Shown one piece after another: positions 1 through 244 of a DNA stretch of 244 nt (its first letter is position 1; each line of letters begins with the position of its first letter). The notes below the pieces were generated by a model, which was not told the DNA's origin, did no database searches, and saw nothing but the letters and a program-made list of their open reading frames with translations. Source of the stretch: Escherichia coli (GTDB lineage: Bacteria; Pseudomonadota; Gammaproteobacteria; Enterobacterales; Enterobacteriaceae); assembly GCF_003334335.1 (NCBI RefSeq), contig NZ_QOWQ01000231.1. One strand, 5' to 3'. A program made the translations under genes and the position numbers.

Positions 1-150
1 CCGGCAGAGCCGGAAGCTGCATCCGTAGCGGAAACCGATGGTAAAGCCTTTCCTCAGCCAGCAGGTGTTGCGTTACCTGTCCGGGAAGCAGAAACACAGG
101 AAGAAATAAAAACGGAAAGTGTGGCGGTCACAGTGCAGTCACAGCCGTCG
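1..150 (+). other. Compositionally biased (Ala/Glu/Pro/Val/Thr/Gln-rich, net acidic) segment of the encoded protein; probable flexible interdomain linker or disordered region
   Basis: Codons 1-50 contain 9 Ala, 8 Glu, 7 Pro, 6 Val, 4 Thr and 4 Gln. There are 9 acidic residues (8 Glu, 1 Asp) against 3 basic (2 Lys, 1 Arg). No Cys, Trp, Tyr, Met, His or Asn occurs, and Phe, Leu and Ile occur once each. Confidence 0.5.
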
Positions 151-243
151 TTCACCAGAAAACATCCGGATGGTCTGATTTTACCATCGCTGCATGTGGC
201 TAACCGCGAGCTGCGCCGGGCAAAAGGTCAGGTTCAGAAGTGG
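1..243 (+). CDS. Internal fragment of a larger protein-coding gene, partial at both ends (no start or stop in window); product unidentified, with an acidic low-complexity linker-like segment followed by a basic segment
   Basis: Frame 1 is open for all 81 codons, while the other five frames contain stops; an 81-codon stop-free run in random sequence has roughly a 2% chance. Codon choice is largely enterobacterial-like (ccg, gcg, ctg, cag, gaa). No in-frame ATG or GTG is preceded by a plausible ribosome-binding site, so the start lies upstream of the window. Product is unknown: I do not recognise the peptide with confidence. Confidence 0.78.
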
Positions 244-244
244 G

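Follow-up and report, generated by a model that had tools for sequence, protein, structure and literature searches.

The window analyzed here, a stretch of Escherichia coli DNA 244 nt in length, lies entirely within a protein-coding gene of a lambdoid, Rac-like prophage (Table 1), and is 100% identical to positions 52931-53174 of E. coli STEC17-183 (NZ_CP075652.1). The enclosing coding sequence (726 nt; L001 5614-6339) specifies WP_000450636.1, annotated as 'DUF1627 domain-containing protein', and is recognized by Pfam PF07789 over the whole of the model (E=1.1e-82; positions 1-155 of 155, residues 76-230), alongside weak winged-helix-type matches, and by phrog_630 in PHROGs (E=2e-119), which identifies the product as a member of the DUF1627/YdaW family. 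Its location is also that of a family member: the gene sits between the integrase/excisionase side and the lysis, head and tail genes, in the order YdaS/YdaT-like gene, DUF1376 gene, replication protein P, DUF1627 gene, DUF977 gene, and this position in the early-right operon, after the replication genes, is conserved. Homologues are found at 2,627 places in 1,016 of 5,426 complete E. coli genomes, with up to six in one genome owing to multiple prophages, and named phages that carry the gene include Rac (where it is annotated ydaW), Rac-SA53, several Stx2a-converting phages and Shigella phage POCJ13. The window is thereby assigned to a widespread, mosaic prophage family, of which many Shiga-toxin-producing E. 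coli hold two to six copies. The same prophage also carries a RelE/RelB toxin-antitoxin pair, dicB, a YdaT-family toxin gene and hokD (L001 2333-2812 and 9991-10146; L113), as well as three tRNA genes (Ile, Arg, Arg), and its integration site adjoins rspB/ynfA.

Table 1. Features of the 244-nt window (positions numbered from its first letter).
Feature	Position	Strand	Basis or reading
Internal part (codons 130-210, frame 1) of 241-aa DUF1627/YdaW-family prophage gene	1..244	+	100% match to NZ_CP075652.1; Pfam PF07789
Predicted disordered linker, aa 130-189, from second winged-helix domain to C-terminal helix	1..180	+	AlphaFold2
Repeat copy 1, GTCACAG	127..133	+	Codon phase 0: GTC ACA G = Val172 Thr173, first base of Val174
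Spacer TGCA, 4 nt	134..137	+	Read from the window letters
Repeat copy 2, GTCACAG	138..144	+	Codon phase 2: last base of Gln175, TCA CAG = Ser176 Gln177
Start of conserved C-terminal helix (aa 193-210 of 193-240)	190..244	+	AlphaFold2

A 2020 preprint lists K-12 ydaW among the prophage genes that, when overexpressed, block the retron-Sen2 toxin RcaT, a survey paper handles YdaW as a putative transcription factor whose length is strain-dependent, and a further preprint reports that DUF1627 genes often lie within 10 kb of the PasA/PasC sRNAs. A literature search on DUF1627 found it solely as a neighbourhood marker for these sRNAs (within 10 kb), with which it does not overlap.

In an AlphaFold2 model built on a 24-sequence alignment, residues 1-52 and 69-123 each form a winged-helix domain predicted with confidence. 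For aa 130-185 and 187-189 the pLDDT is below 50 and secondary structure is lacking, and residues 193-240 make up a long C-terminal helix in which the alignment columns from K209 to K222 are invariant. Foldseek comparison of the model with the PDB returned tandem winged-helix proteins such as ScpB, ESCRT-II, SelB, AlkX/YcaQ and MarR-like proteins; a sequence search of the PDB gave no meaningful match. The six residues specified by the repeat and its spacer (aa 172-177) fall in the predicted disordered stretch, in agreement with the first-pass annotation of this DNA, which had placed a short direct repeat inside a coding region and had taken that region to be a linker; the reading frame (frame 1) is indeed open and lies inside WP_000450636.1. 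This second linker as a whole (linker 2, aa 130-192; window 1-189) bears motifs that are nearly invariant across the family (DGKAFPQPAG, EIKTE and LILPSL), and instead of being a passive spacer it may hold short linear motifs for interaction.

The repeat itself consists, as first described, of two copies of GTCACAG (127-133 and 138-144) with TGCA between them, and nt 127-144 are translated as VTVQSQ in frame 1, the sole open frame of the window (local reading GTG GCG GTC ACA GTG CAG TCA CAG CCG). According to a repeat finder, the copies belong to a longer, imperfect 10-mer repeat, GCgGTCACAG / GCaGTCACAG, at 124-133 and 135-144 (period 11, 9 of 10 bases identical). The window had also been said to have no other notable nucleotide-level repeat, and this cannot stand, as it contains a perfect 10-nt inverted repeat, CGATGGTAAA / TTTACCATCG, at 36-45 and 180-189, with arms 134 nt apart. 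At p about 0.015-0.02 per window the inverted repeat is rarer by chance than the GTCACAG direct repeat. The conserved motifs TDGK and ILPS are encoded by its arms, whose complementarity across 14 homologues falls to 5-9 of 10 positions without compensatory changes; the RNA fold z-score is +0.13, and the inverted repeat is probably incidental.

The two copies of GTCACAG are read in different codon phases and specify different residues: copy 1 in phase 0 gives V and T (GTC ACA G), and copy 2 in phase 2 gives S and Q (caG TCA CAG). No repeated peptide, then, underlies the DNA repeat, contrary to the initial suggestion that it follows from a repetitive, low-complexity protein sequence. The period of 11 nt is not a multiple of three, so a slip between the copies shifts the frame: an 11-nt deletion allele would end at residue 192 (...VAVTAVVHQKTSGWSDFTIAACG followed by a stop codon) and an 11-nt duplication allele at residue 191, and both products lose the invariant KWERVCAALRELNK helix and, we infer, would be non-functional. 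Slippage at GTCACAG could thus inactivate the gene only and could never resize the linker, which disposes of the proposal that repeats of this kind vary linker length here. As a general rule, the period of a repeat is to be compared with the reading frame before a repeat-driven change in linker length is proposed.

Short direct repeats can mediate deletions, and the repeat could in principle be a slippage hotspot or contingency switch, in which loss or gain of 11 nt varies the length of the linker or phase-varies the gene by frameshift. The first of these outcomes is impossible for a period that is out of frame, and the second predicts alleles that were looked for in several collections. Among the 120 closest protein clusters (at least 86% identity) no indel occurs at VTVQSQ, aa 172-177; two indels are present elsewhere within aa 118-200, in a cluster without PGADLPAE (P0014) and in one without VALPVREAET (P0018). 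Synthetic queries with 11 nt deleted or duplicated at the repeat were compared with the 5,426 complete E. coli genomes, a search in which a true slipped allele would appear as a gap-free match of top rank. Neither query found a gap-free match at the best place per record, and no record reached 99% identity on the same basis; the 95-99% band held seven records per search, all of them wild type and aligned over 244 nt with an 11-nt gap (95.5% and 95.7%). Because these tables give the best place per record among the matches listed, a slipped copy on a more diverged background could be hidden in a genome that also has a near-identical wild-type copy. A 53-nt probe centred on the repeat matched 1,284 places in 645 of the complete genomes; 40 of 40 rows among the matches listed span 53 nt, and in the three most divergent examples, which were fetched, the mismatches lie in the flanks and the repeat is intact.

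The result was the same in viral contigs. IMG/VR was scanned with the pattern GAAAGTGTGGCGGTCACAG-N{0,30}-CCGTCGTTCACMAG, with exact flanks, such that N=0 denotes the -11 allele, N=11 the wild type and N=22 the +11 allele. All 94 contigs recovered have N=11 (93 read TGCAGTCACAG, with spacer and second copy intact, and one has the point change TGCAGTCACGG, giving GTCACGG), and thus a length change at the repeat occurs in none of 94 contigs that match both flanks exactly. Leaving aside two aberrant ORFs (265 and 329 aa), the 84 complete genes with the repeat are between 232 and 256 aa long, and their length differences all lie in linker 1 (about aa 53-68; 0, -4 or +15 residues) and in the C-terminal tails; linker 2 shows no indel in any of the 84. 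Tandem Repeats Finder at a minimum score of 30 reported nothing at the GTCACAG site. The length variation between strains that had been anticipated at this position was accordingly seen neither in the protein clusters, nor in the complete E. coli genomes, nor in the viral contigs.

Length variation does exist elsewhere in the gene, and in part it speaks for slippage as a process. Besides the 8-residue segment absent from P0014, linker 2 lacks five codons in frame at aa 157-161 in one locus (L002) and four codons (PSFT) in another (L003), the latter immediately 3' of the position that corresponds to the repeat, which this allele does not have; in POCJ13 (L015) the linker is largely unalignable. 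The segment absent from P0014 is bounded in the window gene by CCGG...CCGG, 24 nt apart and in frame, which would be consistent with a microhomology-mediated deletion, as judged from the DNA of the window gene. At the 5' end of the gene, outside the window, there is a perfect 9-nt tandem repeat, GCACTGAAA in two copies (L001 5632-5649), which codes for ALKALK and is the sole Tandem Repeats Finder match in the DUF1627 gene; P0061, from Enterobacter cloacae, has three units (ALKALKALK) and is a genuine in-frame copy-number variant. The idea that short repeats give rise to length variants thus seems to hold at in-frame repeats of this gene and fails at the GTCACAG repeat.

Frameshifted relatives are also known. 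One ORF of 280 aa (P0050) is frameshifted or fused and diverges after ...RRAKGQVQKW, and the 329-aa ORF (L083) diverges after ...RELRRA, both from about window position 230-244 onward; gene-disrupting changes therefore occur in the family, downstream of the repeat and not at it. In favour of a hotspot are, then, the in-frame indels elsewhere in linker 2 (8 residues in P0014, five codons in L002 and four in L003) and the three-copy variant of the 9-nt tandem. Against it are the out-of-frame period, the failure to find a -11 or +11 allele in the genomes and viral contigs searched, the downstream position of the breaks in P0050 and L083, and the size of the repeat, two 7-nt copies being far below typical contingency tracts. 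The slippage reading is on these grounds already largely refuted, and we give it hardly any weight.

Comparison of alleles indicates how the repeat may have come about. The DUF1627 gene is strongly mosaic (loci L002-L109), with at least three N-terminal winged-helix variants, a linker 1 that differs by 0, -4 or +15 aa, and alternative C-terminal tails (...SEK, ...REQQR, ...DNG and ...TTK) that occur with a shared linker-2 module; this mosaicism argues for frequent recombination among co-resident lambdoid prophages (up to six copies per genome). The repeat belongs to one linker module, ESVAVTVQSQPSFTRKHPDG, which turns up beside three or more N-terminal variants and several C-terminal tails. 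At the six homologous codons the commonest alternative module, ETVADIVQSLPSFTETRADD, has GAC ATT GTG CAG TCG CTG, and a third allele has GAC ATT GTG AAG TTA CAG; other alleles carry GACATTGTGCAGTCGCTG there, with equal length and without the GTCACAG repeat. Within its own allele the 18-mer does not vary; the module as a whole, however, differs very little from copy to copy, and conservation of the 18-mer is therefore uninformative as to selection on the repeat.

An ancient tandem duplication of 11 nt or more, now fixed in this allele, would also leave two similar copies, and the extension of the match to 9 of 10 identical bases (GCgGTCACAG / GCaGTCACAG) is what it would predict. However, the other alleles have neither more nor fewer codons here, and their codon alignment with this one is gap-free; an 11-nt insertion would have shifted the frame, and the intermediate allele GAC ATT GTG AAG TTA CAG points to piecemeal point divergence. 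Since all alleles are equal in length at the site, the repeat was not born of an 11-nt duplication; this origin was rejected on that basis and is exceedingly improbable. The GTCACAG repeat is confined to one allele and derives from point divergence rather than from duplication.

The frequency of such repeats is also within the reach of chance. When the window was shuffled 5,000 times, exact 7-mer direct repeats with a spacing of 4-15 nt arose in 13.6% of mononucleotide, 16.3% of dinucleotide-preserving and 18.6% of codon shuffles, and with spacings of up to 30 nt in 28-37%. In the real sequence around the window, 12.2 kb in all, there are 19 close repeats of 7 nt or more (0.38 per 244 nt), and the DUF1627 gene itself accounts for three of them. 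The GTCACAG heptamer occurs in the 12-kb locus solely at the two positions of the window. In the 50-kb prophage it is found 9 times against 5.5 expected, and the 7-N4-7 pattern with up to three mismatches 5 times against 3.75 expected, both at chance level. The GTCACAG repeat is statistically unremarkable, and with neither length variation at the site in the collections searched nor recurrence beyond chance in the 50-kb prophage, the observations that the first-pass annotation had itself named as speaking against a role for the repeat have been made.

One further reading gives the repeat a role in cis, as an arrangement of two heptamers (7+4+7) that might be bound by a winged-helix regulator; candidate ligands would be an OmpR/PhoB-type protein or the tandem winged-helix DUF1627 protein itself, and the repeat might alternatively be an iteron-like element of the adjacent replication module. 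The 7+4+7 arrangement with an 11-bp period resembles the geometry of OmpR/PhoB-type operators (the Pho box), and the centre-to-centre spacing of 11 bp is about one turn of DNA. In its reverse complement, CTGTGAC-TGCA-CTGTGAC, about 12 of 18 positions would agree with the Pho-box consensus, which speaks in favour of a cis-acting site, as do the location of the gene directly downstream of replication genes and the two predicted winged-helix domains of its product. If such a site existed, it would be an autoregulatory or replication-linked cis element embedded in the coding sequence of its own allele. However, the repeat is missing from most alleles in the same genomic context, no promoter-like site is found within 1 kb on either strand, the prophage-wide search with up to three mismatches gave no excess, and close 7-mer repeats of this kind arise by chance at about 0.15-0.4 per window. 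Absence from the other alleles, lack of a promoter and lack of recurrence in the prophage together make a cis element very unlikely; a protein-binding site of this geometry would be a long shot, whichever of the candidates might bind it, and an allele-specific site for a winged-helix protein, possibly the DUF1627 protein of the same gene, is equally hard to credit.

A structured RNA was likewise considered and rejected, with no Rfam match in the gene region at E up to 1 and fold z-scores of about zero (+0.13 for RNA over window 30-195 and -0.14 for single-stranded DNA over 110-160), no better than shuffled sequences. A terminator scan gave three weak terminator-like hairpins against 1.2 expected, none of them at the repeat.

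The repeat is thus very probably a chance, allele-specific coincidence in a DUF1627/YdaW coding sequence, without a function of its own, and the original judgement that it is most likely incidental is borne out by its chance-level frequency and its absence from other alleles. The analysis shows its location, codon phase and chance-level frequency, its absence from other alleles and the absence of slipped alleles. In the explanation favoured here, ordinary point divergence of one recombining linker allele (ESVAVTVQSQPSFTRKHPDG) produced two codon strings of different phase, and GTC-ACA-G and G-TCA-CAG thereby came to spell one heptamer 11 nt apart. A later slip between the copies would throw the gene out of frame at the cost of the invariant C-terminal helix, and slipped alleles would presumably be removed by selection, or would be too rare between two 7-nt copies to be seen.

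Comparison with known systems leads to the same view. Simple-sequence contingency loci are phase-variable tandem repeats, as in genes of Haemophilus and Neisseria, and the window gene shares with them a direct repeat within coding sequence at which slippage would cause a frameshift. However, the copies here are two non-adjacent 7-mers and not a head-to-tail tract, and copy-number variation is not seen, either in the matches listed for the 1,284 E. coli places or in the 94 viral contigs. With the Pho box the repeat has in common two heptamers, a 4-nt spacer and an 11-bp period, which is a resemblance only; unlike a Pho box, it lies inside a coding region without an associated promoter, does not occur in other alleles and has a spacer that contains G+C, and its agreement with the consensus is only partial. 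Within the DUF1627/YdaW family (PF07789, PHROG 630) the window gene is an ordinary member in which no difference was found, and in Rac, Rac-SA53, the Stx2a phages and POCJ13 the gene likewise follows P or the DnaC-like YdaV and precedes DUF977/LygF. The closest likeness is to the incidental short direct repeats (microhomologies) of coding DNA, which the GTCACAG repeat equals in having two close 7-nt copies at chance frequency; nothing sets it apart from them, and it is not conserved beyond one allele. The repeat therefore matters little and can be dropped as a candidate mutational hotspot, regulatory site or RNA element: it is real as a string and is not a biological feature, but an ordinary chance microhomology in a known prophage gene family.
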